The position numbers and the translations under genes are program-made. Positions 5,105-48,213 of a DNA stretch of 64,000 nucleotides are shown one piece after another. Positions within the stretch are counted from its first letter, which is position 1. Every line of letters starts with the position of its first letter. Source of the DNA: an uncultured Planctomycetia bacterium (GTDB lineage Bacteria; Planctomycetota; UBA8108; UBA1146); NCBI GenBank assembly GCA_964422295.1, contig CAYRAM010000002.1:24052-88051 (forward strand), read 5' to 3'. The notes below the pieces were generated by a model. It did no database searches. It was not told where the DNA came from and was given only the letters and a program-made list of their open reading frames with translations.

Positions 5105-5488
5105 TCAAGGAGAAACGGCTGAATCGGGCGGGATAGGCCAATTTTTCTCGGCGAGGACGTTTTTTCCCGGCTGGCCAGGGGAGTAGCGCTTTGCATCGAG
5201 AAGTTCTTCCGGGAGATCTTCTTCACCCACCAACCAACCCCCAAGAGTGCTTCCATCCTCTGCCCTCATGCGGCAAAACCACTCCCCGGAAGGCTCCACT
5301 GCGACGACAGGCCCGTGGCCACACTGGGCAAGGCAACCGGATTTCACGACCCGTACGCGATGGGAATCTCCCGCTTGATAGATTTTTTCCCGAAGAGCAG
5401 AGCACACATCCATCGATCCCTGTCGAGGACAACTTTTTCCATGCACACAGACGAGAACCACCTGCTCGTATGGCCTGGAATCGGTCAT
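5105..5488 (-). CDS. Thioredoxin-like [2Fe-2S] ferredoxin.
   Basis: The Cys pattern 'VLVCVHGKSC...GCLAQCGHGPVVAV' is typical of NuoE-like or thioredoxin-like 2Fe-2S ferredoxins. It lies 5 bp from the upstream TPR/Trx-like gene, so the two are probably co-transcribed. Confidence 0.5.
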   Translation of the reverse strand: MTDSRPYEQVVLVCVHGKSCPRQGSMDVCSALREKIYQAGDSHRVRVVKSGCLAQCGHGPVVAVEPSGEWFCRMRAEDGSTLGGWLVGEEDLPEELLDAKRYSPGQPGKNVLAEKNWPIPPDSAVSP

Positions 5489-5492
5489 GGGA

Positions 5493-7097
5493 TCAGGAAC
5501 CTTCGGCCAGTAATCTGCGAATCACTGTCCTGTACAGGCCTTTGTCCCAGAACATGGGATCGATCAATTCCCAGCGGACCTTCTTTTCGGAATCGATCAA
5601 GAGCAGCAGAGTTCCACCGTGGGCAACGAGATGCCGATCGAGGACCCCTTTTTCCTGACCTGCCTGGATTCCATAGGTCCAACCCAGATTCTTTGAGGAG
5701 GCGATGCTTTTCATCGCTTCAATTTCCCGCCCTGATCGATCCCCTCTCAGAATGCCGCTGATCCAGACCACTGAGAGGCCCTCCGAAGAGAATTCCTGTT
5801 CCAGTTCCTTGGCAACATCCAGAAATCGGTTTTGGCGATTCTTGCCACGGCTACTGTCACAAAAAATTCGCATCTCCAATTTTGATTCAGCATCTGCAGG
5901 GTTTTTTTGAATCCAGGTCATTCCTTCGAGAGAAGGAGCTTGCTTGTCGTGTAATACATCGATTCGCTGAGCCATCGGAATCGATTGAAATTCGAAATAG
6001 GTCTTCGTGGGCATGGCAAGATCGGTGCCGCCATTGATGCGCTCATAGATTTCGTCGTTGAATTTGAGCAGCGCCTGCAATGCCGCTTCTTTCTCTCCAA
6101 GAGCCAACTGGTAGAACCCCTCATAGAATCTTTGCCGGTCCGCCATCATCGCAAAGTCAGTTTCTTTGCCATCGGGAATGACGTAGGGAGAGCCTTCCTC
6201 CTGTCCAGGCAGAGTGACTTCGGCACCTGCTTGACTCCCGGCGGTCAGGACCGGACCCCACTTGCGCCAGAGTTCTCGGCCTTGCGTCAATTTTCCCAGG
6301 TGTCGACATGCCTTGTGAGTGAAGTAGACCAGGTGTGGCAAGTAGGGGGATCTTGGATGGTTGTTCAGGCAATTGAAGCCGGCTTTCATCATCGCTTCGT
6401 AATCACCGGCCAATTCGAGGGCTTCCACCTCTTTGATGCGCAATTCATCCGCATCGAGGAGACTCGTATCGAGCTCAAGAGCACTGCGGAAGGCCTGTGA
6501 GGCTTCTACCGGCTTGCGGCATTTTAACAATGCATCCCCCAGGACCACTTGTGCACGACTGACTTGATCCGGGGGAAGATCCTCCTTGGCCAGAGCGATC
6601 TGGGCCAACTGGATGACCTCCTGAAGGTAGTAAACCTGTTCAGCCAATCTTTGATCGTTTGTGAATGGTGCGCCCGAGTCTTTGGCAGCTTGGGCCATCA
6701 TCCCGACATGGCGATCCACATTCAGAATCAAAAGGCGTCCCAGATCTATCGCAACCCGGGAGAAGTCCTTTCCTTTTGCGGAGAATCGCATGACGTAATC
6801 CCTGCCCGCATCGATTCCTTCATCGAGGGTGATGAATACGGCTGCCAAATCATCTCTTCGAAGAGTTCTCGGGTCAGGAATCGCTGCCAACTTCTCCCGC
6901 ACAGTCTTTGCAAGTGCCGCTGACTCCTCTGAAGAATCGTCGTTGCTGTCCAATTCAGGGAGCGTTGAGGCCTCCTTTGAAGAGGGGGGAGTCTCCGTTT
7001 GTCCCATCAATAGATCAGAACAGAGTGTGGGAATGAGGAGGCTGATCGCCAGGCTGAAGAAGCGGAATTGGGCACCCGCAATACCGAAGAAGGACAT
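5493..7097 (-). CDS. Secreted TPR-like repeat protein with a C-terminal thioredoxin-fold domain that lacks a canonical CxxC.
   Basis: N-terminal signal peptide 'FFSLAISLLIPTLCS'. The central region is rich in helical repeats. The last ~140 aa resemble the TlpA/redoxin fold ('KVRWELIDPMFWDKG'), but the active site has only a single Cys ('RIFCDSS'). Confidence 0.4.
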   Translation of the reverse strand: MSFFGIAGAQFRFFSLAISLLIPTLCSDLLMGQTETPPSSKEASTLPELDSNDDSSEESAALAKTVREKLAAIPDPRTLRRDDLAAVFITLDEGIDAGRDYVMRFSAKGKDFSRVAIDLGRLLILNVDRHVGMMAQAAKDSGAPFTNDQRLAEQVYYLQEVIQLAQIALAKEDLPPDQVSRAQVVLGDALLKCRKPVEASQAFRSALELDTSLLDADELRIKEVEALELAGDYEAMMKAGFNCLNNHPRSPYLPHLVYFTHKACRHLGKLTQGRELWRKWGPVLTAGSQAGAEVTLPGQEEGSPYVIPDGKETDFAMMADRQRFYEGFYQLALGEKEAALQALLKFNDEIYERINGGTDLAMPTKTYFEFQSIPMAQRIDVLHDKQAPSLEGMTWIQKNPADAESKLEMRIFCDSSRGKNRQNRFLDVAKELEQEFSSEGLSVVWISGILRGDRSGREIEAMKSIASSKNLGWTYGIQAGQEKGVLDRHLVAHGGTLLLLIDSEKKVRWELIDPMFWDKGLYRTVIRRLLAEGS

Positions 7098-7456: not shown

Positions 7457-8170
7457 ATGATGATGCAGCCATTGCTGATTTCCCTTTTCGCTCTGGGTTT
7501 GACAACCCAGGACCCGTCAACAGGGGCCGCAGGGGGCGCTGTGGCAGAAGAGATCCCCTACAAAAAAGTGGATCCCGAAAAGACGATCGGCATGAATATG
7601 CCGGGAATCGAAGTGATCGATCTTGAGGGCAAGAGTGTCGATCTCTCCCAGTTCTCAGAGAAGACGATGATCCTCGAATTTACTCTTCCCAGTTGCCGAT
7701 TTGCACAGCGGTTATACATCCAGAAGAGAGTTCAGCCGATGATTCAAAGATTGGCTCGGCAAGAAATCCTCTGGTTCAGTGTCGATTCCTCCTTTTTTGC
7801 GCATCCCGAACGGTGGCAAAACTGGGCGAAAAAGTACACTCTCAAGCACCAATTCATGCTCGACAATGAAGGTCGATTGGCAGAGGCCCTTGGAGTTAGG
7901 GTGAGCCCCACCTACATCATCGTCCACAAGGGAAAGATCATTTACCACGGATCTCTCGATGACGATATCTGGGGACAGGATCTCGATCGAACCGTCCTTC
8001 TCGATCAGGCTCTCAAGGCGGGCCTCGCCGGGGAGACGATTGAAAAGCCGTATGAAAAACCTTACGGGATGGCGATCAGGACCCGTCGGGTAGAAGAGAT
8101 TCGCCGCAAGGAGTTCGAAGAAGCTCGCAAGAAGGCATTGGGAGACTTCGACAAGCCCAAAGGCCAGTAG
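7457..8170 (+). CDS. Secreted redoxin / TlpA-like thioredoxin-fold protein with a non-canonical active site.
   Basis: Signal peptide 'LLISLFALGLTT'. Redoxin-like elements are present ('KTMILEFTLPSC', 'PTYIIVHKGKIIYHG'), with a single Cys in place of CxxC. Confidence 0.45.
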   Translation: MMMQPLLISLFALGLTTQDPSTGAAGGAVAEEIPYKKVDPEKTIGMNMPGIEVIDLEGKSVDLSQFSEKTMILEFTLPSCRFAQRLYIQKRVQPMIQRLARQEILWFSVDSSFFAHPERWQNWAKKYTLKHQFMLDNEGRLAEALGVRVSPTYIIVHKGKIIYHGSLDDDIWGQDLDRTVLLDQALKAGLAGETIEKPYEKPYGMAIRTRRVEEIRRKEFEEARKKALGDFDKPKGQ

Positions 8171-9592: not shown

Positions 9593-10297
9593 TTAGTAGT
9601 CGACCTGACGGAAGTTTCCACCATTCATGGCGGAAAGGTTCACGTAGAAGGACTGTTCACCAGAGTAGAACGCGCTGGTGAAGTAAATCGTGTGGATCGG
9701 CAGATTCTCAAAGTTCGCAGCAGTGATCGAATCGAGGCACATGTCGGCGTAACCGCCACCGCCTTCACCACCGCAGTAAGGCTCGCGAGCTCCACAAATG
9801 ATCACCTGCTTGTGTGATCCGGAAGACTGCTGAGCGAGACCCATTGCGACGAGGGCTGCATCGAGCAGGCAGTGGTTCTCAATCGGAGTCAGTCCTCCGA
9901 GCCATGCCTGGGCAGAAGCCTTGTTACCGGCGTTTGCACTGCAGCAATCCGGTCTCCAGATGTATGTCTGGGAGTTGTAAGCGACCACGGAAAAATCGAC
10001 CGCTGCCGAGAGTTGGTTCAGTGTTCCACTGACCTCTTGGCGAATGTTGTCGAAAATATCCGTTTCACCACAGAAGCCGTAAGCAGGAACGACGAAGACA
10101 AAGGTGTCACCCTCGAATTCTCCACCGTAAAAGTTGATGCTCTCAGGGGAGTCTTCTTCGTCGTCGTCATCTCCGGCTCCTCCTGATGGGAGGTCGAGAG
10201 GTTTGCGCAAACCATCTGCGGCATCAGAGATGGGGTAACCACCGATGATGAATCCCGCGAGTAGCAAGAAGAGAAGAGTTACAGAGCGAAGCGTCAT
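9593..10297 (-). CDS. Hypothetical secreted Cys-rich protein.
   Basis: Signal peptide 'VTLLFLLLAGFIIGG', an acidic stretch 'GAGDDDDEEDSPE', and several Cys residues. No family was recognised. Confidence 0.45.
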   Translation of the reverse strand: MTLRSVTLLFLLLAGFIIGGYPISDAADGLRKPLDLPSGGAGDDDDEEDSPESINFYGGEFEGDTFVFVVPAYGFCGETDIFDNIRQEVSGTLNQLSAAVDFSVVAYNSQTYIWRPDCCSANAGNKASAQAWLGGLTPIENHCLLDAALVAMGLAQQSSGSHKQVIICGAREPYCGGEGGGGYADMCLDSITAANFENLPIHTIYFTSAFYSGEQSFYVNLSAMNGGNFRQVDY

Positions 10298-10779: not shown

Positions 10780-12105
10780 ATGAGCAGTCTGAGTGGATTT
10801 ACTGCAATATTGAGATCCTTGGTTTTTGCTTTGCTGTTTTGTGGTGGGGCAACCGGGATCAGTTTTGCTGAAGAGAGCCCTGTGGCCACCGCTACCTGGG
10901 AAGTGCGTGAGGTCAAAGGCGATGATGAGTCCCTTTACCAGATCACCATTTACCAAGTGGATTCCCCGGGGGGCACCCGCTGGATCTGGAGAGCGGTCGA
11001 TGAGGAGAATGGTACCTACCCGGGTGGTTTCCCCATCGGATCTCTGCGATTGGCGAAGCGTGGCAAACCGAGGCCGGAACTCTTCGACCCCCTCTCTCCG
11101 GGTGTGACCCAGGCGCTGATCGCAATCCATGCAGCGGTCGAGGCCCAGGCCGGAGAAGGGTGGGCGGATGGAAATGCGGTCGGGATTCGTCGCAATCTGC
11201 CGGTGATCCGAACCGATGTTGCCGCAGAGTCCGGCTTCATTCTCAAGGGCAGCCTGAGTGTCGAGGAAGTGGAAATTCGGGGGGGCAAGAAACCTCTCAA
11301 ATTGACTTCGCTCGAAGAGGAACTCCGTTACGACGAGAAGGGGGGGCTGACCGAAGCTCATTGGTCTGCTCGCATGACTCGTGGTGGTGAAAAGTCACCG
11401 GGACGCGAGCTCCACCTGGTTCGCAAGGCCGTTGCCCTTCTTGAGGAAGAAGAGGGTGTAGAGGTTCAGAGGGGTTTCGAATTTCTCAAGCCGGTGGTGT
11501 CTGTGCTGCGGAGAGGGATGTCGCTGAAGGCCGTCGAATTGGCGGAAGAGATGTTCAAAAAGCAGCGCAAGGAGTTTGAAAAGGGTCCACTGGGTGACGT
11601 CGTCAAGGATGTCGATGTGTTGCTCAAAGAAATCCGCGAGCTTGCAGCGCAACCGCTCAATCCCGATGAACGTGCCAAGAATCTCCTCGGCAAACCTGCT
11701 CCCGATTTCACTCTCGAAGATCTGGATGGGGAAGAGATCAATCTTTCAGATTATCTGGGCAAGACGGTTCTGGTTGCCTTTTGGGGCTACTCGTGAGGGA
11801 TCTGTCGTGCGGAGTCTCCGCACCTCAGCAAGATTCAGAAGGAGTATCGCAATCAGGGTGTCGTCGTTCTGGCAATAAATGCCGACAATGATGGGCGTTC
11901 AAGGATCCGAGAATACGTCGAGGAAGAGGGTCTCCAACAGAAAATGCTTCTGCAGGGGGACGGTGTTGGGTTTCAGCAGTATCATATTAAACGGATGCCC
12001 ACGGTCTATTTTGTCGATCGAAAGGGGATTCTGGTTTCAAGAAGTCCCGGATTTCAGGACTTTTCCGAGCTTGAGAAATCTCTGAAAAGTACTTTGCGAA
12101 GGTGA
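10780..12105 (+). CDS. Selenocysteine-containing TlpA/ResA-like thiol:disulfide oxidoreductase (U-G-I-C active site) with a large N-terminal secreted domain. The TGA at 11794-11796 is read as Sec.
   Basis: ORF 10780..11796 ends '...APDFTLEDLDGEEINLSDYLGKTVLVAFWGYS' followed by TGA. Reading on in the same frame gives 'GICRAESPHLSKIQKEYRNQGVVVLAINADNDGRSRIREYVEEEGLQQKMLLQGDGVGFQQYHIKRMPTVYFVDRKGILV...' up to a TGA at 12103-12105. This aligns with the TlpA consensus '[37 protein letters not shown]', with the TGA exactly at the first Cys. There is a signal peptide at the N-terminus. Confidence 0.7.
11807..11823 (+). promoter_or_regulatory. Candidate bacterial SECIS hairpin 10 nt downstream of the in-frame UGA.
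   Basis: gugcgg-AGUCU-ccgcac: a 6-bp GC-rich stem with a 5-nt loop containing GU. It begins 10 nt after UGA 11794-11796, which matches the spacing of bacterial SECIS elements. Confidence 0.45.
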
Positions 12106-12141
12106 GGCTTATCTGGTGCCAATTTCATCGTCTCGATGGAA

Positions 12142-12250
12142 GCCGAGAGGCCGAGAAGCCGAGAGGCCGAGAAGACGATGGAAGACGGATGGGAGACCGA
12201 AGTAGGTTTCTGGTGCACCATGCCGCATTGCAAACATGCCGCATCGCAAA
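12142..12250. repeat. Two short tandem direct-repeat blocks in the leader of the dockerin-protein gene.
   Basis: (gccgagag/gccgagaa)x4 lies at 12142-12173. Two adjacent 16-mers, catgccgcattgcaaa and catgccgcatcgcaaa, lie at 12219-12250, ending about 27 bp before the ATG at 12278. Confidence 0.5.
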
Positions 12251-12277
12251 GATGTAACAAATAGGGAGAGAGATCCC

Positions 12278-13387
12278 ATGACTATGTTTCGCTATAGTTT
12301 GATTTTGGTCTTTTTGCTGTGTCCAGGAGTTCATGTCTTCGGTCAGGGCACCTGTGATATCACTTATTTTCTGACCGTCTCCGAATCGGATGACCTTCTG
12401 AGAACAGTGGCAGCATCTTCGATGACGGTCGAAGAGACGGTTTCACTGTCGATTCCCGGTGCTTTTGAACTGGACGAAGTCAGAGGATTGGCGATCGACC
12501 CGGTATCGGGGCTGTACTACATGCTGGGAATCGGAACTTTGCCGCCGAATCCGCCTGCGACAGTTCCGATCCTGTTCTACTACGATCCCGTAGGCCTCTT
12601 TACCAATCCGGTCGGATCCACCCTGCTCGATTTCAATGACATCGCCTTTTTGCCCAGTGGAGAGATTCGTGCTATCACCAATGTTCTGTCCAATTCAGAA
12701 GTCAATTATTGTGACCTCAATCTGTTGACCGGTGGTCCCACTGATCTGTGTCAATTTCCCAACGGCGATTGTGGTGAGTCGATCGCCATCAGTGGGGCGG
12801 GCCAGTTGTTCCGTGGTACGGGAGGTTGTGCCTTTGGTGCCCGTTTGCAGATTCCGGATCCCACTGGAGCGGTCGCTTGTGATCTGGACACCACAAACAT
12901 CGATCAAGTACTGATCGATGAGCCGGTCAGAACGATCACTTGGTGGGAACAGGAACAAGGATTTGTATGGGTCATGGGAGACGCCAACAATTCCATCTAC
13001 TTCCTCGAACTCGATGGCACGGCCACATTGCTCGGAACTGCGGATCATTCGATCAACGGACTTGCGATCATTACCATCCAGGGGCCGTGTCCACCGGCGG
13101 ATGACATCTTTATCCGCGGTGATTGCAATCTCGACCTCGGCGTCAATGTCGCAGATGCGGTGTTCCTCCTCTCAAATCTCTTTGTTCCCCAATCACCACC
13201 CCTCGGTTGCCGCGATGCGGGAGATGCCAACGATGATGGAGGAGTCAACGTTGCCGATGCGGTATTCCTCTTGTCGAGCCTCTTCGTCCCTAATTCCGCT
13301 CCCGTGCCCTTCCCCAACATCACGGATGGTTGTGGTGAAGATCCGACCACCGATGGACTGGATTGCCAGACCACCGGCTGCCCCTGA
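12278..13387 (+). CDS. Secreted protein with a C-terminal dockerin-like module.
   Basis: The start was moved to the ATG at 12278 (GGGAGAG RBS). Signal peptide 'MTMFRYSLILVFLLCPGVHVFGQ'. The C-terminus 'IFIRGDCNLDLGVNVADAVFLLSNLF...DAGDANDDGGVNVADAVFLLSSLFVP...PFPNITDGCGEDPTTDGLDCQTTGCP' contains twin Ca-loop repeats. Confidence 0.6.
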   Translation: MTMFRYSLILVFLLCPGVHVFGQGTCDITYFLTVSESDDLLRTVAASSMTVEETVSLSIPGAFELDEVRGLAIDPVSGLYYMLGIGTLPPNPPATVPILFYYDPVGLFTNPVGSTLLDFNDIAFLPSGEIRAITNVLSNSEVNYCDLNLLTGGPTDLCQFPNGDCGESIAISGAGQLFRGTGGCAFGARLQIPDPTGAVACDLDTTNIDQVLIDEPVRTITWWEQEQGFVWVMGDANNSIYFLELDGTATLLGTADHSINGLAIITIQGPCPPADDIFIRGDCNLDLGVNVADAVFLLSNLFVPQSPPLGCRDAGDANDDGGVNVADAVFLLSSLFVPNSAPVPFPNITDGCGEDPTTDGLDCQTTGCP

Positions 13388-24632: not shown

Positions 24633-26270
24633 ATGCGGACCGCATCACACCGTGTCAATTCGACTCACGAACCGTTGTACCCGTGCCGGCTACTTCGGGC
24701 AGGGTCGCAATTGCTATGGGTGAGCATCGTGCTCTTTGCGACTCTGGGGGACACCCGTGCGATGGAATCGATGGTCCCTTCTGAATCGGAACGGAAACCC
24801 GGTGAACTGATTCTCCCCGAGAAGACGTCAGGGAAATTCGATCGAGAAATCCTGCAAGAATTGTGGCCAGGAGAAATCCTCGTCGAAAAGTGTATTGTTC
24901 CAATTGAAGGAGAATTGAAGAGGGCGATCGTTCAGAGATGCAGAGTCAAGACGACGGATCACCTCAGTACGATCTTCAGAATTCGCGATGCCAAGAGTCA
25001 GGAATTGGGACACGTGGTGATTCTTGATGAGATTGGCAAATATCGGCCAATCACCTTTTTTGTTGCCCTCGATGCAAGAGATCATGTCCTCGATCTTCAG
25101 GTATTGGTGTACCGGGAACATATTGGCAAGGAGATTGAGTCTGCACGATTCACACGCCAATTCAGGGATAAACGATCTTCCAGCATCCTGAAATTGCATC
25201 GGGATATCCGCAATTTGTCAGGGGCAACATTGTCGGCTCGCGCTGCAGTTCGAGCGGTGAGAAGAGCCTTGGCCACCGTGGAAGAGGCCGTGCGTGCAGA
25301 CGATGGGCTCCTCTGGCAACGCCATTCGGGACCTGTTCTCACTTACGGAGACCTCGGGGGAGGGGAGCCCTTCTCTGCCTCCGGGATGGAGCCATCGCCT
25401 CCCGCCGAGCAGGAAATCGGCAAGACCTCCGGCAGTACCGTGTCTTTCCGAAACGGTGAAGAGAAATTGATCCAGAGGGCGCGGCCGGCGATGGGAACGA
25501 TCCTGAAAATCGACGTTTTTGGAGATCACGCCCTCGCGGCAGTCGATGCCGCTTTTGCTGAAGTGGAACGCATCGAATCCCTTCACAGCCGTTGGCGACG
25601 CGACAGTGATGTTTGCAAGGTTGAGGCCGCTTCCACCGGGCAAGCCGTCAAAGTTTCTGCTGAGACGATCGAAGTGGTCGAGAGAGCGTTACAAATGTCA
25701 CGGGAGAGTGGCGGCGCTTTCGACCTGACTCTGAAAAAAGACGGATACAAATCGGTCAAGATCGATGCGCACGAGCAAACGATTACTCTGTTGAAGCCTG
25801 AGTTGATCCTCGACCTTGGCGGCATTGGCAAAGGCTATGCCCTCGATAGAGCGGCTGCCATTCTTGAATCTTATGGTTGCTCCAGTGCGCTCCTCGACTT
25901 TGGTGGACAGTTGCTCGCATTGGATCCTCCTCCGGGTGAAGAGGCGTGGCCAGTGGGTATCTTCGACCCACGTGATGGCAGGACGGTCTTGCATCAGTTG
26001 CCTCTGGTGAGGTCATCCCTCGCCACCACGGCGAACTATGAACGAGGAGACCACCTCGTCCATCTCCTCGACAGAGAATCAAGCCACCGTGTTCTGACCA
26101 CGTCAGTCATCTCTGAGAGTGCTACTCAAGCGGACTTGCTCAGTACCACGGTTGCTCTTCTCGATCAGGATCGGGCTCAGATGGTTCTCAACAGTCAGCC
26201 CGGTGCTTCTGCGGTTCTCCTGATTGAAGGAGAGGATGAGCCCAGGTTCATGGGTCGCTCCAAGCGCTGA
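24633..26270 (+). CDS. Membrane-anchored fusion of an FMN-binding domain (flavinylation target) with an ApbE-type FAD:protein FMN transferase.
   Basis: N-terminal TM 'LLWVSIVLFATLG'. The FMN_bind domain carries the flavinylation motif 'DIRNLSGATLSARA'. The C-terminal half has ApbE signatures ('ILDLGGIGKGYALDRAA', 'ALLDFGGQLLAL', 'TSVISESATQADLLSTT'). Confidence 0.7.
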   Translation: MRTASHRVNSTHEPLYPCRLLRAGSQLLWVSIVLFATLGDTRAMESMVPSESERKPGELILPEKTSGKFDREILQELWPGEILVEKCIVPIEGELKRAIVQRCRVKTTDHLSTIFRIRDAKSQELGHVVILDEIGKYRPITFFVALDARDHVLDLQVLVYREHIGKEIESARFTRQFRDKRSSSILKLHRDIRNLSGATLSARAAVRAVRRALATVEEAVRADDGLLWQRHSGPVLTYGDLGGGEPFSASGMEPSPPAEQEIGKTSGSTVSFRNGEEKLIQRARPAMGTILKIDVFGDHALAAVDAAFAEVERIESLHSRWRRDSDVCKVEAASTGQAVKVSAETIEVVERALQMSRESGGAFDLTLKKDGYKSVKIDAHEQTITLLKPELILDLGGIGKGYALDRAAAILESYGCSSALLDFGGQLLALDPPPGEEAWPVGIFDPRDGRTVLHQLPLVRSSLATTANYERGDHLVHLLDRESSHRVLTTSVISESATQADLLSTTVALLDQDRAQMVLNSQPGASAVLLIEGEDEPRFMGRSKR

Positions 26271-26304
26271 TATCAAGGGGACCATCAAACAGGAGGTGGA
26301 GTCG

Positions 26305-28245
26305 ATGAACAGGGAACAGGGCAGAGATACGCTCCGTATCTCCATCGCCGGAAATCCCAATGTCGGCAAATCGACCCTCTTCAATGCCCTCGTTTCGGGG
26401 CGGGCACGAGTTTCCAACTATCCCGGAATCACCGCCGAAGCATTAATCGGCAGAGGGACGTGGGGCGACGTCCAGGTTGAGGTCACCGATCTCCCCGGTT
26501 GTTACGGCATGCAACTCGATCTACCTGAGTCACGGCTCTGTAAAGAACACTTGTCTTCACCGCAAAGACCAGACCTCATCGTCAATTTGATCGATGCGGT
26601 CAGTTTGCGTCGCAACTTGAACATGCTTGCAGAGTGTCTTCAGGAAAATAGTTCTCACATCGTCATGGTGACCCGCACCGATGAGGCCCGACTGAGGGGG
26701 ATCGAGATCGACTTCGACCGCTTCAGCGAGTTGGTCGGCGTGCCGGTGATCGAGTTGGCTCACAGGAGTTCTCACAAGCAAGAACCATTGAAGGAGATAC
26801 TGCTCGAAGCAGCAAACTCTGCTCCTGCAAGGATCGAAGTGGGTGACCCCTCTGAGTGGGGTGACGATGTTGCTGCTGCAGTCACTCGACCCGTCAATCC
26901 CGAAGAAGCCCGCAAGAGGAGAAAGAGGGAGGATCGACTCGATGGTCTTTTGCTGCATCCGATTTGGGGATTGGGATCTTTTCTTCTCATCATGGGATTG
27001 CTTTTTGCCAGCGTATTTTGGTTGGCACAATTTCCCATGGAGTGGCTCGATACTTTCTTTGCGTCAGTCTCGTCGTGGGTGGGATCCAGTATGCCCGAGG
27101 GCGAGGTCAGGGATTTGGTCACGGAGGGAATCATCGGCGGAGTTTCGGGAACGCTGATTTTTCTGCCGCAAGTCTTGCTGCTCTTCTTTCTGATCAGTCT
27201 GCTCGAAGAAACCGGATATTTGGCCAGGGCGGCACTCGTTGCAGACCGCTGGCTGAGACCCTTTGGTTTGCCAGGTCACTCCTTCGTTCCATTGCTCTCC
27301 AGTCATGCCTGTGCCATCCCTGGCATCCTCTGTACCCGGCTCATCCCCGATCGCCGGGACCGATTGGCTGCGATTCTGGTGGCGCCATTCCTCTCATGTT
27401 CAGCGCGGTTGCCGGTATACCAACTCCTGGTGGGATTGCTCTTTCCCGGAAATCCACTCGTCGCAGGAATGGCGTTTGTGGGCTGTTATCTCCTGGGCGC
27501 ATTGGCCGCCATCATGACCGCGTTTCTGGTCCGTCAGTTTTTGCTTCCAGGACGCAGCCCCAATCTCATTCTTGAGCTTCCTCCCTTCCAGAGGCCATCG
27601 ATGTTGGGCTCCCTCCATACCGCTGGGCACCGGGGCTGGCTCTTCATCAAAAATGCGGGAAGCGTCATCCTGTTGATGTGCATCATATTGTGGTGGTTGG
27701 GGAGTTACCCAAAGGTGGGAGAGAGTCCCCAGGTGGTCGATTTACGTGCGCAAGCGGCGGCGACCGCCACAGCAGAGGACGCACTTGCGGTAGGGATGGA
27801 AGCGGATGCTCTTGCCGCAAAAGAGAGTACTTCCGCTTCATACCTGGGACAGATCGGAAAAACAGTGGAGCCGATCTTTGCACCGATCGGTGCCGATTGG
27901 CAATTGTCGATCTCGGTGATGGCGAGTTTTGCGGCTCGGGAAGTGTTCGTATCAGCCACAAGCGTTATTCTCGGCACAGGCGAGGAAGGTGATGCGCAAA
28001 CATTGATGGAGAAGATCGAAAATTCAACAAGAGACGATGGTGCACCCCTTCTGACTCCTTCAGCGGCAGCGGGACTGCTGGTGTTCTTTGTGCTCGCGAT
28101 GCAGTGTCTGCCGACCCTCGCAGTGACCCGCAAGGAGGCGGGTGGATGGAAGTGGGCATTACTGCAATTCTTGTGGATGAGTGTCCTTGCTTGGAGCTTG
28201 GCAGCATTGACCCGGGGTATTCTCAAGTTTTCAGGAGTGGAATAA
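26305..28245 (+). CDS. feoB: Ferrous iron transport protein B.
   Basis: G-domain 'ISIAGNPNVGKSTLFNALVSG', 'DLPGCY' and 'NLID' motifs, followed by the polytopic membrane domain. The ATG at 26305 is preceded by AGGAGGTGGA. Confidence 0.9.
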   Translation: MNREQGRDTLRISIAGNPNVGKSTLFNALVSGRARVSNYPGITAEALIGRGTWGDVQVEVTDLPGCYGMQLDLPESRLCKEHLSSPQRPDLIVNLIDAVSLRRNLNMLAECLQENSSHIVMVTRTDEARLRGIEIDFDRFSELVGVPVIELAHRSSHKQEPLKEILLEAANSAPARIEVGDPSEWGDDVAAAVTRPVNPEEARKRRKREDRLDGLLLHPIWGLGSFLLIMGLLFASVFWLAQFPMEWLDTFFASVSSWVGSSMPEGEVRDLVTEGIIGGVSGTLIFLPQVLLLFFLISLLEETGYLARAALVADRWLRPFGLPGHSFVPLLSSHACAIPGILCTRLIPDRRDRLAAILVAPFLSCSARLPVYQLLVGLLFPGNPLVAGMAFVGCYLLGALAAIMTAFLVRQFLLPGRSPNLILELPPFQRPSMLGSLHTAGHRGWLFIKNAGSVILLMCIILWWLGSYPKVGESPQVVDLRAQAAATATAEDALAVGMEADALAAKESTSASYLGQIGKTVEPIFAPIGADWQLSISVMASFAAREVFVSATSVILGTGEEGDAQTLMEKIENSTRDDGAPLLTPSAAAGLLVFFVLAMQCLPTLAVTRKEAGGWKWALLQFLWMSVLAWSLAALTRGILKFSGVE

Positions 28246-28464: not shown

Positions 28465-29619
28465 ATGCTTCCAATTAGGTTAGTGAATCTCGCCTTTGCC
28501 CTGTTGTTACTGGGCACTGCGGCGTTGATTGCAGCGCCTCCTGATTCTGCAGACAAAATCGATCAGAAGCAGGAAGAGGAGGCAAAAAAGGCTTTTGATT
28601 CCATCTACGAAAAGATGAATGAAGCACAAGATGCTTACTACAAGCCCTTCATCGATGCCCGGGAGAAGGGATTGAGCCCGGAGGAAATGGACAAAATCGA
28701 ACTCGATCCGGAACTTGAGCCGGTCAAAATCGTGGGTCCGGAACTGTTGCGTGGAATCGAGAAATTTGCCGGGACTGAGGCCGCACTCCAGGCTTGTGAC
28801 CGGCTGATGGGGATGGCAGGCAGAAGCGATACCCAGGGGTGGATGGTCGAAAAGGTAGTCGCTGTTCTCAAAGCCCATTATCTCAAGAATCCAAACTTGT
28901 TGAATGTGGTACGCTTCGCCCATTACGGCAGTGACGCTCCGGTGATGAAGGAGTTCCTCGGTACAGTGGTGAGTGAGTCCCCCCATAGGGAGGTACAGGC
29001 CGCAAGCTGCTACTCGCTGGCAAAGATGCTGGGCAAGAAAGAGGAAACCCGGGGTGAAGGTTTGGCGATGCTGAAAAAGGTGCAAACCGACTTTGGGGAT
29101 GTCCCATACAGGGGGGATCGTGTCTATGCGGACAAGGTCAAGGGCGACCTCTTCGAAATGGAAAATCTGCAAATCGGATGCGTGGCACCGGAAATCATCG
29201 GCAAAGAGATCTCAGGAAGTTTAATGCAGCTTTCTGCCTTCAGGGGCAAAGTGGTGCTACTCGATTTCTGGGGAGACTGGTGAGGACCTTGCAGGGCGAT
29301 GTACCCACACGAGCGGTCGCTCGTAGAAAAATACTCAGCAGATACATTTGCCATCGTCGGCATTAATTCCGACTCCACGATTGAAAAAGCCAGGGAAGTG
29401 GTCAAAGAGAACAAACTCAACTGGCTCAACTTCTACGATGGAGGCACCGATGGTCCCATTGCGACGCGGTGGAATGTCAGTGGTTGGCCAACGATCTACC
29501 TCATCGATGCCAAAGGAGTGATTCGATTCAAGGATGTTCGTGGCAAGAAGTTGGATGCGGCCATCGAGGTGCTGTTGAATGAAACGAAAGCTGAAAAAGC
29601 AGTAGAGGCTGGCAAGTAG
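28465..29619 (+). CDS. Selenocysteine-containing TlpA-like thiol:disulfide oxidoreductase with a U-G-P-C active site. The TGA at 29281-29283 is read as Sec.
   Basis: ORF 28465..29283 ends '...GKVVLLDFWGDW', then TGA. Reading on in the same frame gives 'GPCRAMYPHERSLVEKYSADTFAIVGINSDSTIEKAREVVKENKLNWLNFYDGG...GWPTIYLIDAKGVI' (ORF 29299..29619 is in the same frame). This reproduces the TlpA consensus 'FWASWCGPCR', with Sec at the first Cys. Signal peptide at the N-terminus. Confidence 0.7.
29309..29324 (+). promoter_or_regulatory. Candidate SECIS apical hairpin with a GGUC loop, 25 nt downstream of UGA 29281.
   Basis: acgagc-GGUC-gcucgu: a 6-bp stem with the loop GGUC, the same apical-loop sequence as the E. 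coli fdhF SECIS. A lower helix is possible with the 5' flank. Confidence 0.35.
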
Positions 29620-30389: not shown

Positions 30390-30623
30390 TCAGCAATTCA
30401 GAGGAACAACTCTCAGTGTCGCTGCGATGTCTTCGCTGAGTCCCAGCCGTTGGCCTTTGATCTCAAGGACACAGGTACCGGAGTTGTGACAAACACGCAG
30501 TTCACAATCGTCACACAATCCCATCGATTCAAGGAGAGGGCGTTGATCGTGGGGAATCGATTCGGCGATGAGTCTACCGCTTTCACCCTGCTGCATATCG
30601 AAGAGTGAACGCATGCGGGACAT
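30390..30623 (-). CDS. feoA: FeoA-family small protein.
   Basis: An SH3-like FeoA pattern 'LFDMQQGESGRLIAESIPHDQRPLLESMGLCDDCELRVCHNSGTCVLEIKGQRLGLSEDIAATLRVV'. The start was taken at the internal ATG (MSRMRSL). Confidence 0.55.
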   Translation of the reverse strand: MSRMRSLFDMQQGESGRLIAESIPHDQRPLLESMGLCDDCELRVCHNSGTCVLEIKGQRLGLSEDIAATLRVVPLNC

Positions 30624-30913
30624 CGTCTCGTTGGCTGCGGCTTCAAGGTTTGAGGCCCCGGAAGCGGGTGTGGGCTGGGAATGAGGGTAATAAGGTGATT
30701 CTTGATCGGCCTTCATGACTCTCCAGCAAAGGTGACTTCAGGTACTACCAACAGTGTCCGCCTCGACACAGAAACACCCATCGCTGCCGAAAGGTATCTT
30801 CCCTGATCGGATAGGAGACTTGTTATCGAAGGGGAGCGGCATTAACCTGCCCTCCGGTTTACAAAGTCGCCCAAGAGAGTAGTTGTACCGGTTGTTTAAG
30901 GAACCGTCAACCT

Positions 30914-30929
30914 GTTTGGGTAGCCAAAC
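30914..30929. promoter_or_regulatory. Palindromic operator-like site GTTTGGGTAGCCAAAC (copy 3) in the divergent feoA / DtxR-family promoter region.
   Basis: 14 of 16 positions match copy 1. It sits just upstream of the predicted regulator start, consistent with autoregulation. Confidence 0.4.
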
Positions 30930-30942
30930 GAATGGGGTCTCA

Positions 30943-31503
30943 TTGATTGATTGGCGTGAGTTTGACCAGAATCCGGTGAGCCACTCCGCTGCCCACCACC
31001 TGACTTCGATTCAGCAGTTGCTGGATGAGCAGGGGTACGCGCGCGTCTCAGATGTTGCCCGCAAACTGGGGATCACCCGGGGGAGTGTCTCGGTGACCCT
31101 GAAAGGTCTGAGGCAACGGGGTCTCGTGATCGAGGATCAGCACAAACATCTGGGACTCTCGGATGAGGGGCTGAGAATTGCCCGTGGGATTCACACAAAG
31201 AGGATCCTCTTCAAGGCATTTCTCCAGGACTCCTTGGGTCTGCCTGCTGAGTTGGCAGAGTTGGACGCTTGCAAGGTGGAACATCTGGTGAGCGATGTGA
31301 CTGCGGAGGCTTTGGCAATCTATATGGAGCGTAATGGAATCGGCGAGGGTGCTTCCAAAGACCGCAAGGAACAAGTAAAGGCATTGGAAGTCAGTATCAA
31401 AGATGGTCGCATCGATGCTTTCCCTGGTGAAGATGTTGAGGCATTTTCAGAACAGTTGCAAAGCAGGAGTGATGCGGGAAGCAAGGGGCAAACAGATGAG
31501 TAG
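30943..31503 (+). CDS. DtxR/MntR-family metal-dependent transcriptional regulator.
   Basis: 'HHLTSIQQLLDEQGYARVSDVARKLGITRGSVSVTLKGLRQRGLV' matches the DtxR winged-HTH, followed by a dimerisation/metal-binding region. The start is uncertain (TTG 30943 or GTG 30976). The ORF track starts at 30883, but that would place the palindrome inside the ORF. Confidence 0.7.
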   Translation: MIDWREFDQNPVSHSAAHHLTSIQQLLDEQGYARVSDVARKLGITRGSVSVTLKGLRQRGLVIEDQHKHLGLSDEGLRIARGIHTKRILFKAFLQDSLGLPAELAELDACKVEHLVSDVTAEALAIYMERNGIGEGASKDRKEQVKALEVSIKDGRIDAFPGEDVEAFSEQLQSRSDAGSKGQTDE

Positions 31504-42537: not shown

Positions 42538-43869
42538 ATGACTTCAACAAAACTGTGGCTGATGATATTTCTTCTGCTGTGTCCGGGATGGGTCCATGGC
42601 CAATTGTTTGAGCGCCCTGTCGTACTCGAAGGAGTGAGTGCGATCTCTCCGGGTTCAACACAGGAGAATTTGACCATCACCATCCGGGGCGGTCGAATCA
42701 CCGAGATCTCTCAAACCGCAGACGTTCCGCTGATGGCCAAGAAAATCCCTGCCCAGGGCCTCTTCGCCACCGCCGGTCTCGTCGATCACGCATCAAACCT
42801 GACTCTTCCCGTCGGCGGAGCAGGTGCAGCGGAACAGTGGAGTTGGGATGGTTTTGACCGCTATTCGAGGGATGCCATCGAAGCCGTGCTCGCTGCGGGA
42901 GTGACGCGGGTTCACCTGGTCCCGGCGAGGGGCGAGGGAATCAGTGGCAGATCCTGCTGGGTATCGCTGAAAAATTCCCAAGGTGGGGGACACGGTGTTC
43001 TCATCGAAGAGGAAACAGCGCTGTGCGTCAATCTTGCAGCCGGGACTCCCGCCAACAGAATCCGATCCTACGCCAAAATCGTCGCCGCGTTTCGCGGTGC
43101 CCGCGATCGCAGGGACGCACTCGACAGTTACGAATCAGACCTGGAGGAATACCTCGAGGAACTCAAGAAATGGATTGAGGAGAATGACTCCGCAGAGGGT
43201 GACGAAGAAAAGGATGAAGAAAAGATGGACGGCGATGACGGGGACAAGGAGAAGTCGGATGATTCCGATAAAGCCCCTGAAAAGCCACGCCGACCCGATC
43301 TGGATGCCACCTCGGATATCCTGCTGCGCGCCGTCAATCACGAATTGCCGGTATTGATCACCGCCAGAAAGTCTGCGGATCTGATCAATGCCTGTGAACT
43401 GATCCGCGACTACGAACTGGATGCCATCATCCACGGTGCCGATGAGGCTGAGTTGGTGATCGATCAACTCAAAGAGTTGGAGGACGTTTCTTTCATCATC
43501 GATGAACCAGCCATGCCATTGGAGTCCTCGGGGTCGGGAGTCTTCACTTCCAGGCCTCGTCGCCCGTCCAGTCTGACGAAAGTTCTCGATGACCATGATT
43601 TTGATTGGGTCATCGGCAGTGGTGGATCGGGATCGGGATTATGGAGGATGACCCGCAAGATGACCGGGGGTGAGGCTCTCGCCAGTGCCCAGTCCACCAA
43701 CCTGCGTGGACTCAAGAGCCGAAGGGATTGGCTCAGGCCCGGCCAAAGGCACATCGTTTTGTGGAGTACCAATCCGGCAACGGATGCCTCAGCACGTCCA
43801 GTAAAAGTCCTCATCGACGGGGACGTGGTGTGGGAAGAAACCTCAGCAGCGAGAGGGGGACGTTTCTGA
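42538..43869 (+). CDS. Secreted amidohydrolase-superfamily paralog 1 of 8 (metal-binding HxH replaced by 'DHA').
   Basis: Signal peptide 'LWLMIFLLLCPGWVHG'. The N-terminal beta-sandwich 'ITIRGGRITEI', the HxH-region 'ATAGLVDHASN' and a C-terminal 'VKVLIDGDVVWEE' are present. An acidic KE-rich insert 'EENDSAEGDEEKDEEKMDGDDGDKEKSDDSDK' is in the middle. Confidence 0.6.
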   Translation: MTSTKLWLMIFLLLCPGWVHGQLFERPVVLEGVSAISPGSTQENLTITIRGGRITEISQTADVPLMAKKIPAQGLFATAGLVDHASNLTLPVGGAGAAEQWSWDGFDRYSRDAIEAVLAAGVTRVHLVPARGEGISGRSCWVSLKNSQGGGHGVLIEEETALCVNLAAGTPANRIRSYAKIVAAFRGARDRRDALDSYESDLEEYLEELKKWIEENDSAEGDEEKDEEKMDGDDGDKEKSDDSDKAPEKPRRPDLDATSDILLRAVNHELPVLITARKSADLINACELIRDYELDAIIHGADEAELVIDQLKELEDVSFIIDEPAMPLESSGSGVFTSRPRRPSSLTKVLDDHDFDWVIGSGGSGSGLWRMTRKMTGGEALASAQSTNLRGLKSRRDWLRPGQRHIVLWSTNPATDASARPVKVLIDGDVVWEETSAARGGRF

Positions 43870-45086
43870 TGCAGATCAAAACGATCCGACGTCACTGTTT
43901 CACACTACCGCAGCGTACTCAGGCGTCATTGCTGTTGATCACTTTGGCAGTTTTGTGGGTGATCGGTCAGCCTTTCGCTTTCGCCGGCAAACCGATGACG
44001 GTCATCACCGGGGCCGCCGTTCTGCTGCCGGATGGAACCGTCGAAGATAACTGGGCAGTATCGGTGGGCCCGGATGGCACCATCAGCGCCTTGCTTCCGG
44101 CCGAATCTTTCGATGACGATGTCGAGGAATGGATCACCTATCAGGCACCGGCTGGATCGGTATTGACACCGGGATTGCATGATTTGATGGGAGCGCTCGG
44201 GACAAGAGGGAAGCCTGGATCCCTGCGGGCAGGGAAGCTGCTCATCGATCCTGAATTGGATGCGGGTCACAGCTTTGACAGCAGTGATCCCTGGCTCGAT
44301 GAAGCTGCCAAACACGGGGTCCTCTACACCACACTGGCGGCTCAGCCACTGGGAGTGGTGAACGGAAAAAGCGCAACCTTCCTTTGCCAGACTTCTGGCG
44401 CAGCAAAGAGGCTCTCCGATGGAAAGACGATGCTGGCATTGGGAGATTCGGTTCTCTCGAATGATCGGATGCCCACCAGCAGAACTTCACTGCTGTCGAT
44501 TTGGCGCGAATGGATCGCTAGTCAGCCCTCGATTCTGAATTCCCCCGGAATCCTTTACGTCGCGGAGGGGATGGATCTCCGCCAAGCGCTGGGTCTGACG
44601 TGGTCAAAGGCGGCGATTCCGGTGTTTATTCACACCGGTGGCGATGCGCGTTCACCCCTGGAGCTATTGGGCAGGCTTGGCAAACAGTCCGGTCCTGTCC
44701 ACATGGTCGTGGGCCCCTTTCTCGAAGGGGGAGATCGGGCGCATCTGATGATGGCGGTGAGCGCTTCCCGGCAAGGAGTGGAATTGAGTTTTGCTGGAGG
44801 TCTTCCGGCGGGCCCCACGGATCACCTGCGTGGAAGTGCCGCGCTGGCGGTTGCAGCGGGAATGGATTCTACCGCAGCACGGAGAGCACTCTTCAGCAAT
44901 CCTGCCCACGTATCAGGAGCCTCTGATACCGGTGTGATTGCCGCAGGAAACAGGGCTGACATGGTGCTCTTCTCCGGAGATCCTCTCGACCCGGCCTCCG
45001 AGGTCATACACGTGTGGCGCGGGGGGCAGGGGATGCGAGTGGCCCTTCCCGGTGAAGTCGAAGAAATGGAGACGATCAGAAGATGA
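43869..45086 (+). CDS. Secreted amidohydrolase-superfamily paralog 2 ('LHD' in place of HxH).
   Basis: ATG 43869 overlaps the upstream TGA (TGATG). Signal peptide 'LLLITLAVLWVIGQPFAFA'. 'LTPGLHDLMGAL' and a C-terminal 'ADMVLFSGDPLDPASEVIHVWRGG' are present. Confidence 0.6.
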   Translation: MQIKTIRRHCFTLPQRTQASLLLITLAVLWVIGQPFAFAGKPMTVITGAAVLLPDGTVEDNWAVSVGPDGTISALLPAESFDDDVEEWITYQAPAGSVLTPGLHDLMGALGTRGKPGSLRAGKLLIDPELDAGHSFDSSDPWLDEAAKHGVLYTTLAAQPLGVVNGKSATFLCQTSGAAKRLSDGKTMLALGDSVLSNDRMPTSRTSLLSIWREWIASQPSILNSPGILYVAEGMDLRQALGLTWSKAAIPVFIHTGGDARSPLELLGRLGKQSGPVHMVVGPFLEGGDRAHLMMAVSASRQGVELSFAGGLPAGPTDHLRGSAALAVAAGMDSTAARRALFSNPAHVSGASDTGVIAAGNRADMVLFSGDPLDPASEVIHVWRGGQGMRVALPGEVEEMETIRR

Positions 45087-46621
45087 ACAATGCGCAACTG
45101 AACAGATATACACAGGTGATCCTGGCACTCGTTGTCATTTTGGGAGTGGCCCACGGGTCCGTCCACGGGAATGCCCAGGATTCCACTGATCCGGTCAACT
45201 CCTATGCAGTCAAGGCTGCCAAGGCTCATCTGGGTAATGGTCAAGTCGTCGAAAATGCCCTGATTGTCGTGCGCGATGGGCGTATCGAAAGCGTCACCGC
45301 CGGTGGAAGTGCTCCCGATGGGCTGACATTGATAGAAGTGACGGAAGTTACACCGGGACTGATCGATGCCAACGCCAAGATCGATGTCATGGATGCACTT
45401 CTTTATCCCACGGAGGACCCGCGGCTGACGATTCTCAGAGCGCTGGGGATGGCAGATCAATACCACGGCGGCGACGTTTGCCCCTGCGGTACGGTGTGTC
45501 CTGCGGTGACTTTGCACCGCCACGATGAAAGTTGCCTCTTCTGCGGTTATCCAGAGCATGATCCCCACTCCCATGCACACGATGAGGAGGAGGAGGAAGA
45601 AGAACTCCTGGAACTTGAGAAGCAGGCGATGGCCGCAGGAGTTCCTGCAGAGAGCGGACTGGTTACCGATCAGTCCAGTGAAGTGGTTCCCCAATTTGAA
45701 ATCATGGATGGCATCGATCACGGTTCCAAAGACTTCGATCGTTTGCTGAAGGAAGGTGTGACGACCGTCTACATCAGCCCCGATGGATCCGCCGTGATCG
45801 GATCACGGGGTGCGACGATGAAAACCGGTGGCCCGGTGCTGGACAGGTACATGGGAATCGGCTCGGTGAAAACCGTTGTTGGAAGTGACTCCTATCGCTA
45901 CGGAACGCGTAATCGCAGTCCCTTCCGTGGCTTTGTCACGATTTACACTCGCCGTCCCGATTCCAGAATGGGCGTGGGCTGGGTCTTCCGCAGGGCATTT
46001 TATGATGCCCTCCTGAGAGCCCGCGGTTTGGAGCCGATCGGGGCGGACAAGACCTCGGCGGAAGCATCGAAAGTCTTGCAGGGAGTCCTCGCCGGTGAAA
46101 TTCCGATGCGAATTCAGGCCCGTACCGGCAGCGACATCGAGACGGCTTACCGTTTCGCCAAGGAGTTCGGTGTTTCCTTCACCCTGGAAGACCCGGTTGA
46201 AGCGTGGAAGCGTGTCGATCTCCTCAAGGAAGCGGGGACACCCGTGGTCTTCGGGCCGATTTTCGACCAGCCCAGCGGGATTACCGCCGGGTCCGGAGAG
46301 ATGCGGAATCGTCGTTTGCATACGGTTCGAGATCTTTCCAATGCCGGAATCCCAATGGCGTTGAGTGCCCAGGACCTGCGTGGTGAAGAAGGTCTGGCCC
46401 GGCAGGCGATGCTGGCGATTCGTTATGGAGTGGATCCGCAAGAAGCGCTGCGCATGGTGACCCAATATCCCGCTCAGTTATTGGGAATAGAAGATGAAGT
46501 GGGAACTTTGGAATCGGGCCGCAGAGCGGACCTGGTTTTCTGGAATGGTTCCCCATTCTCGGCATTGACCAGGATCGAAAAGGTCATGCTGGACGGCGTA
46601 ATTTCATACGAAAGAAACTGA
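45083..46621 (+). CDS. Secreted amidohydrolase-superfamily paralog 3 ('IDA').
   Basis: ATGA overlap with paralog 2. Signal peptide 'VILALVVILGVAHGSVHG'. 'VTPGLIDANAKID', a poly-Glu insert 'HDEEEEEEELLELEK' and a C-terminal 'ADLVFWNGSPFSALTRIEKVMLDGVI' are present. Confidence 0.6.
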   Translation: MNNAQLNRYTQVILALVVILGVAHGSVHGNAQDSTDPVNSYAVKAAKAHLGNGQVVENALIVVRDGRIESVTAGGSAPDGLTLIEVTEVTPGLIDANAKIDVMDALLYPTEDPRLTILRALGMADQYHGGDVCPCGTVCPAVTLHRHDESCLFCGYPEHDPHSHAHDEEEEEEELLELEKQAMAAGVPAESGLVTDQSSEVVPQFEIMDGIDHGSKDFDRLLKEGVTTVYISPDGSAVIGSRGATMKTGGPVLDRYMGIGSVKTVVGSDSYRYGTRNRSPFRGFVTIYTRRPDSRMGVGWVFRRAFYDALLRARGLEPIGADKTSAEASKVLQGVLAGEIPMRIQARTGSDIETAYRFAKEFGVSFTLEDPVEAWKRVDLLKEAGTPVVFGPIFDQPSGITAGSGEMRNRRLHTVRDLSNAGIPMALSAQDLRGEEGLARQAMLAIRYGVDPQEALRMVTQYPAQLLGIEDEVGTLESGRRADLVFWNGSPFSALTRIEKVMLDGVISYERN

Positions 46622-46670
46622 TGATTTTCCCGCCATCGAAGTGGCGGGTGCATTGAAACCGAGGTATTCG

Positions 46671-48212: not shown

Positions 48213-48213
48213 G

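Follow-up and report, generated by a model that had tools for sequence, protein, structure and literature searches.

A candidate TlpA/ResA-like selenoprotein gene with a conserved UGA codon at the active-site cysteine position in marine Planctomycetota

Known UxxC selenoproteins and the gene at 10780-12105

ResA, TlpA and CcmG are extracytoplasmic disulfide reductases. Related proteins that carry selenocysteine (Sec, U), described as Prx-like or TlpA-like and sharing a UxxC motif, have been catalogued since 2004-2008 (PMC1088965, PMC2398784): the Sargasso Sea survey lists a 'Prx-like protein, UXXC' (PMC1088965), and the Global Ocean Sampling (GOS) survey lists 'Prx-like 1, pfam00578, UxxC, 225 Sec / 2,740 Cys' (PMC2398784). 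Here we describe a candidate gene of this class, located at positions 10780-12105 (+ strand) of a 64-kb stretch of DNA, called the window below, which is part of a 166-kb contig from an uncultured Planctomycetia bacterium. The complete candidate coding sequence (CDS) would specify 441 residues including one Sec, followed by a stop codon, and the same architecture is common to 38 loci. Judging from the sequence comparisons presented below, it is almost certain that an exported thiol-disulfide oxidoreductase has Sec, specified by UGA 11794-11796, in its active site.

The ATG at 10780 opens a 338-codon open reading frame (ORF) whose end, ...GKTVLVAFWGYS (LVAFWGYS), is followed by TGA 11794-11796. 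Past this codon the same frame goes on with GICRAESPHLSKIQKEYRNQGVVVLAINADNDG...MPTVYFVDRKGILV... (GICRAESPHL...) for 102 sense codons, up to the true terminator, TGA 12103-12105, which is replaced by TAG or TAA in most orthologs. This ORF end and its same-frame continuation had been reported in a first-pass annotation of the window, and both the coordinates and the sequence were confirmed. When the read-through protein was compared with Pfam profiles, U being written as C, AhpC-TSA was matched with E=1.2e-23 over profile positions 2-122 of 124 (83.9 bits, gathering score 26) and Redoxin with E=2.2e-20 (73.4 bits, gathering score 26.6), the two matches spanning residues 304-433. The upstream ORF alone covers AhpC-TSA positions 2-33 and the downstream piece alone positions 40-122; a single domain runs across the UGA. 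When the protein's C-terminal 148 residues were aligned with the ResA structure 4nmu (E=8e-21), the match ran from one end to the other and U-G-I-C stood opposite C-K-P-C. The TGA is found at the first Cys of CxxC, in its canonical position after the FW..x strand, and the earlier proposal that it takes the place of the nucleophilic Cys holds.

We then compared the predicted protein with the described systems. It shares with the Prx-like/TlpA-like UxxC selenoproteins a thioredoxin fold (PF00578/PF08534), a Sec that comes first in UxxC and replaces the nucleophilic Cys, an occurrence in marine bacterial metagenomes, a bacterial-type Sec insertion sequence (SECIS) immediately downstream, and the existence of Cys homologs. 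Compared by description, the published class differs from it in lacking the N-terminal extension of about 300 residues, composed of a LolA-like domain and a helical linker. Moreover, the family found here is nearly always Sec-containing (20 of 22 clusters), in contrast to the 225 Sec and 2,740 Cys proteins of the GOS 'Prx-like 1' group. As for ResA, TlpA and CcmG (DsbE), the resemblance includes a full-length domain alignment to ResA, the FW..xCxxC..P context and an N-terminal signal or anchor suggesting an extracytoplasmic site, whereas Sec in place of Cys sets the protein apart. The NCBIfam cut-offs of these enzymes were all missed (ResA NF002854, 90.9 vs 170; TlpA NF047696, 56.4 vs 230; DsbE TIGR00385, 39.6 vs 123). 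By analogy, the protein would work like the ResA, TlpA and DsbE enzymes but belongs to none of these named families. The curated selenoprotein family NF041054 ('ResA-like WAxxUGC motif-containing protein') likewise has a ResA-like fold and an active-site Sec within a larger protein; its motif, however, is WAxxUGC and not FWGYS-U-G-[IAS]-C (UxxC), and with a score of 48.8 against a cut-off of 300 the protein is not a member. Another NCBIfam selenoprotein model, NF053656 (TUGYCR), gave a score of 19 against a cut-off of 100 and has a different motif, and no NCBIfam model gave a score at its cut-off. The TlpA/Prx-like UxxC class is well documented, and on its sequence the gene appears to be an added member, arguably of a new subfamily, bringing a new domain architecture to the class. 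It leaves the understanding of Sec decoding unchanged, being useful for annotation and no surprise to a specialist.

The N-terminus (MSSLSGFTAILRSLVFALLFCGGATGISFA, 10780-10869, + strand, as are the other segments of the protein) was read by inspection as a probable signal peptide, meaning that the protein is probably exported or periplasmic. In an AlphaFold2 model of residues 1-338, whose mean predicted local distance difference test (pLDDT) is 69, a hydrophobic helix (residues 5-20) and a low-confidence linker precede a beta-rich part (residues 35-221), which is followed by four helices (residues 223-302); residues 99-138 are disordered. The beta-rich domain (10882-11442, about residues 35-221) is probably a LolA/LolB-like open half-barrel, a moderate-confidence lead from the model and not a functional assignment. 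The LolA-like half-barrel fold usually holds hydrophobic ligands. The helical linker (11446-11685, about residues 223-302) was modelled with a pLDDT of 74-89, and the TlpA/ResA-like thioredoxin-fold domain with its U-G-I-C motif (11689-12102) was delimited by the Pfam matches and the 4nmu alignment. No Pfam or NCBIfam family matched the N-terminal architecture.

Conservation of the UGA codon and of the downstream frame

A protein search gave 19 orthologs, 48-100% identical, from metagenome-assembled genomes of marine Planctomycetota. Their lengths range from 331 to 370 residues and all of them end with ...FWGYS, as the first-pass annotation had expected of a naive gene call (19/19 truncated before the catalytic motif). 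We looked at the DNA of 32 ortholog loci (48-86% identical) drawn from genome and metagenome collections, or 33 with the window. The codon after FWGYS was TGA in 33/33 loci and the frame then stayed open for 101-102 codons, while the terminal stop varied between TAG, TAA and TGA. The DNA of five truncated distant family members (L033-L037), which brings the total to 38 loci, gave the same picture: TGA was present at the site in 5/5 and the downstream frame was open for 101-109 codons in four, L033 leaving its contig after 42 open codons. The flanks of the TGA are also conserved, with FWG[YH][ST] before it and G-x-C-R-A-E after it, the latter being the best-conserved residues of the whole protein. 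Such conservation in 38 loci makes a chance origin untenable.

The ratio of nonsynonymous to synonymous divergence (dN/dS) was 0.05-0.15 for the 100 downstream codons, with dS values from 0.7 to above 2, and 0.05-0.25 when codons +1 to +49 were taken separately. The first in-frame start codon (ATG, GTG or TTG) past the UGA of the window is only met at codon +50. Whether the downstream frame is kept in orthologs had been fixed beforehand as a test that could overturn the selenoprotein proposal, and it came out decisively in favour of that proposal. Since the frame is open and under purifying selection in the orthologs, the tail must be translated, and translation must pass the UGA.

To cover more distant relatives, a profile of the N-terminal ORFs was searched against 1.84 billion representative proteins. 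This profile search gave 22 clusters (50% identity) that match the N-terminal domain through the profile end, and 20 of them stop at the UGA residue, with endings that include FWGYT, FWGFT, FWGYA, FWALL and FWSLM. The remaining two are full-length, with 460 and 475 residues, and carry Cys instead: P0126 (FWSSS-C-RSC-RAEAP) and P0171 (CWSIA-C-KEC-RAEAP). P0126, P0171 and ResA all have Cys at the position aligned with the UGA, which is the Sec/Cys pair looked for in selenoprotein searches.

In the public gene calls of both selenoprotein families of the window (the second is described below), the proteins end at the UGA and are labelled 'redoxin domain-containing protein' or 'hypothetical protein' (P0001-P0019, P0065-P0147, P0213-P0236). 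In some cases the tail appears as an ORF in its own right, about 100 residues long and with a separate AhpC-TSA match (L035 1754-2059, L036 2593-2919). The reading proposed here would correct a systematic annotation error, given that the 19 close orthologs and about 20 distant clusters were deposited as short proteins, roughly 340-390 residues, without the catalytic motif.

The hairpin downstream of the UGA

An RNA hairpin, GUGCGGA / GUC / UCCGCAC, lies at 11807-11823 (+ strand), inside the CDS, over the codons Arg-Ala-Glu-Ser-Pro-His. It starts 10 nt past the UGA and its loop starts 17 nt past it (spacer 11797-11813). Two pairings are possible, either a 7-bp stem with a GUC loop or a 6-bp stem with an AGUCU loop. 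The first-pass annotation had described a 6-bp GC stem with an AGUCU loop; the position and the 10-nt spacing were right, but the stem and loop are better described as 7 bp and GUC. In the published bSECISearch model of the bacterial SECIS (bSECIS), an apical loop of 3-9 nt stands on a stem of 4-16 bp, a G is located at loop position 1 or 2 and is usually followed by G or U, the distance from the UGA to the loop is 16-37 nt and the free energy is -7.5 kcal/mol or lower (PMC13188914, Fig. 2). The window hairpin, with a 3-nt loop, a 7-bp stem, the loop sequence G-U-C, a spacing of 17 nt and -9.9 kcal/mol for the 17-nt hairpin, passes the scan for these four constraints, in agreement with the earlier claim that its spacing and loop G/U match those of bacterial SECIS elements. 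When all TGA triplets of the window (2449) were put through the same scan, 4.0% passed, and 1.7% had a hairpin as stable as -9.9 kcal/mol.

A comparable element is that of Escherichia coli fdhF. According to what Liu et al. reportedly wrote in Nucleic Acids Res in 1998, the minimal fdhF SECIS is a 17-nt upper stem-loop 11 nt after the UGA, and the G-U of its apical loop is said to contact SelB. The hairpin of the window is similar in having 17 nt (7+3+7), in starting 10 nt past the UGA, in a loop that begins with G-U and in its location inside the CDS. It differs from the fdhF element by its loop of 3 nt (5 if the A-U pair opens) and by a perfect 7-bp stem without a bulged U.

Among 13 distinct sequences, the 17 nt are invariant except for one stem change, G-C to G-U, and one loop change, U to G. 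Six of the seven stem pairs never vary, and in the seventh the single G-C to G-U change (L030), which goes with a His-to-Tyr substitution, keeps the pairing. In the distant loci L033-L037 the 17 nt are retained, the sole change being GUC to GGC in the loop (Ser to Ala), in agreement with the bSECIS consensus and its G[G|U] alternation. We also looked at codon usage from -60 to +100 around the UGA. Of 73 amino-acid-invariant columns with degenerate codons, 11 show no change of codon among 20 distinct sequences, and five of these 11 are the consecutive hairpin codons Arg-Ala-Glu-Ser-Pro (permutation P=2e-4 for such a run). Restricting the invariant columns to a degeneracy of 4-fold or more left 45, of which six were frozen in the 20 distinct sequences, all of them between -1 and +11 of the UGA. 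The hairpin is thus constrained at the RNA level. Being ultra-conserved, the sequence GUGCGGAG[U/G]CUCCGCAC could serve as a search probe.

A possible lower extension of the hairpin (11802-11828, + strand) would pair CUG 11802-11804 with CAG 11826-11828 across a 2x2 internal loop and is weakly supported. It appears in minimum-free-energy folds, with its outermost pair broken in 5/13 sequences and one more pair broken in L009. Two lower-stem extensions, UGAG/CUCA and CUG/CAG, were considered and rejected, their conservation being inconsistent.

Alternative readings of the UGA, proposed function and genomic context

Taken together, these results make it highly likely that 10780-12105 is one gene for a 441-residue exported selenoprotein with a Sec-Gly-Ile-Cys site, the hairpin acting as a bacterial SECIS. 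A conserved TGA, selection downstream of it, a Sec/Cys pair and a constrained hairpin are the computational criteria used in the field for a bacterial selenoprotein gene; all four were found here, and they support the TlpA-type selenoprotein that the first-pass annotation had put forward. Several observations nevertheless weigh against it. The stem shows no compensatory covariation, with no double changes among the 13 distinct sequences, and since it is invariant the structural support comes from the freezing of synonymous sites and not from covariation. The free energy of a wider 76-nt region was ordinary when compared with shuffled sequence (z=-1.1); what counts as evidence is hence the local hairpin with its placement, and not how stable the region is as a whole. 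Rfam holds no matching family, all matches in the window being below the gathering threshold, and around the hairpin its sole match was a chance microRNA (E=4.4). No selA, selB, selD or tRNA-Sec gene was found within the 64-kb window or the fetched locus flanks: Pfam scans of about 45 window ORFs gave no SelA, SelB or SelD, and ARAGORN found no tRNA gene in the window or in 15 loci. The only EF-Tu-like GTPase in the window is an EF-G paralog with EFG_III, EFG_IV and EFG_C. Lastly, it is from the sequence evidence that we infer the incorporation of selenium at UGA 11794-11796.

Could the UGA be passed without Sec? Independently of any SECIS, it might be read by a standard tRNA that is near-cognate (Trp, Cys or Arg) or through some other form of recoding; the protein would then have a standard amino acid at this place, and the role of the hairpin would be limited to slowing the ribosome or competing with the release factor. 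Such a read-through would agree with the fact that no Sec machinery was found in the accessible sequence, and with a stem whose lack of covariation does not tie the hairpin specifically to SelB binding. We nevertheless hold it to be improbable: a UGA at the position of the catalytic Cys, paired with Cys in homologs, is the signature of Sec and not of leaky termination; the loop varies only between GU and GG, at the SelB-contact positions of the bSECIS consensus; and Cys can be encoded directly, as in P0126 and P0171, yet the UGA is kept in 20 of the 22 clusters. Even less credit can be given to a synthesis of two polypeptides, in which a 338-residue product would end at the UGA and the C-terminal 102 residues would be made by re-initiation, yielding a split thioredoxin fold. 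Although public gene callers often annotate the tail as a small ORF of its own (as in L035 and L036), codons +1 to +49 are under purifying selection and yet precede any in-frame ATG, GTG or TTG in the window; the residues directly past the UGA are the best conserved, and in a split protein the active site would lack its nucleophile.

The two other explanations have next to no chance of being correct. A pseudogene, a genuine truncation or an error of sequencing or assembly would account for a gene that ends at the TGA in every public annotation, but the comparative data refute it: 38 loci, assembled independently and with saturated synonymous divergence, all have this TGA, and none of them has a broken downstream frame, the dN/dS being near 0.1. 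Likewise, the idea that UGA has become a sense codon throughout the genome, as in genetic codes 4 or 25, has nothing in its favour except the in-frame TGA itself. TGA terminates 22/37 long ORFs of the window, the IleRS gene included, and since it is the commonest ordinary stop there, UGA is not reassigned. In addition, the gene's own terminator is a TGA that alternates with TAG or TAA in orthologs, and the whole 64 kb has just two TGAs, among long ORFs, that break up a recognisable protein domain.

If the UGA is decoded as Sec through the hairpin, the standard model predicts that SelB-GTP with Sec-tRNA(Sec) would bind the G-U apical loop, whose start is 17 nt past the UGA, and would bring Sec to the A site of the ribosome, competing there with release factor 2. 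The product would start with a signal peptide, followed by a LolA-like beta domain, then a helical linker and finally a TlpA/ResA-like thioredoxin fold, and the mature enzyme, located outside the cytoplasm, would most likely be a thiol-disulfide reductase or isomerase. By analogy with the Cys enzymes, Sec339 would take over from the N-terminal, nucleophilic Cys of CxxC and attack the substrate disulfide, and Cys342, three residues on, would resolve the selenenyl-sulfide intermediate. It is in this sense that we infer the actual insertion of Sec, its dependence on SelB, the export of the protein, the substrate and the direction of electron flow.

The window contains a second candidate selenoprotein gene of the same class (28465-29619, + strand). 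Its ORF, 28465-29283, ends with ...LDFWGDW-TGA (UGA 29281-29283) and the frame continues with GPCRAMYPHERSLVE... to 29619. Read through, it gives ...LDFWGDW-U-GPC-RAMYPHERSLVE, and AhpC-TSA (positions 1-123 of 124) as well as Thioredoxin_8 are matched across the TGA. All of its 18 orthologs end at FWGDW, whereas Cys homologs read FWGDW-C-GPC-RAMYPHERSLV. A hairpin at 29309-29324, ACGAGC-GGUC-GCUCGU, has a loop that starts 31 nt past the UGA. The N-terminal 235 residues look helical and matched no family. As this gene bears the same signature, the organism would have more than one such site, in indirect support of a Sec machinery in its genome, and the sequences suggest that a marine planctomycete lineage uses Sec and has two or more genes of this kind within 18 kb. 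The second gene is flanked by iron genes, namely FeoB (26224-28245, + strand), FeoA (30390-30716, - strand) and a DtxR-type iron-dependent repressor (30883-31503, + strand).

On the - strand, TGA 5493-5495, between a 534-aa and a 127-aa ORF, was also considered as a recoding site. It was rejected: the downstream in-frame peptide looks non-coding, and in the orthologs a gene of its own is called at a distance of a few bases. The two ORFs correspond to a conserved pair of unknown genes, of about 535 aa and about 120-130 aa, lying a few bases apart (5105-7097, - strand). Gene calls for this pair differ between near-identical contigs (493+62 in L006 15046-16894, 510+120 in L007 14995-16894). The small protein has a weak 2Fe-2S thioredoxin-like match, and inspection revealed no convincing recoding site in the pair.

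Two neighbours of the 10780-12105 gene are conserved. Upstream and divergent, 9593-10297 (- strand) encodes a 234-aa secreted protein that is possibly VWA-like; a gene of 230-240 aa occupies the same place in close and distant loci, the neighbourhoods of L033, L034, L036 and L037 being conserved, and the L037 copy has a weak VWA_3 match while the window copy has no Pfam match. Downstream, 12236-13387 (+ strand) encodes a 383-aa protein with dockerin-like repeats, DANDDGGVNVADAVFLLS (DxNxDGxVNxxD). Every locus that extends far enough, the distant L034, L036 and L037 among them, has a gene of 368-387 aa there, and the L037 copy has a faint Dockerin_1 match. Adjacency points to a possible functional link of the selenoprotein candidate with both neighbours. 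No cytochrome c maturation or Cu-site assembly genes were found adjacent to the gene in the window or in the fetched loci, and no terminator-like hairpin was found between it and the next gene. A short tandem repeat follows the stop codon at 12139-12197, with GAAGCCGAGAGGCCGA (period 16, 2.5 copies; sub-period 8) and then GAAGACGGATG (2.5 copies).

A broader and quite tentative proposal, which we think could be correct but would not bet on, is that the gene represents an uncatalogued family of marine Planctomycetota and relatives that is nearly always Sec-containing, has an architecture of its own, belongs to a three-gene extracytoplasmic module with the VWA-like and dockerin-repeat proteins, and has kept a 17-nt SECIS frozen across very deep divergence. 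If this were true, the frozen 17 nt, which also encode the active-site motif R-A-E-[SA]-P-H, would lock protein and RNA constraints together, and a possible role of the LolA-like domain would be to offer the active-site Sec a substrate that is lipidated or hydrophobic.

A third gene with the AhpC-TSA/Redoxin fold (7457-8170, + strand) lies about 3 kb upstream with conserved synteny; it is not interrupted by a stop codon and has a single Cys, in a P-S-C context, not CxxC or UxxC. Further along the window, at 43728-54876 (+ strand), there is a tandem array of seven consecutive paralogous amidohydrolase genes (Amidohydro_1, Amidohydro_3), one of which is double-length with 932 residues.

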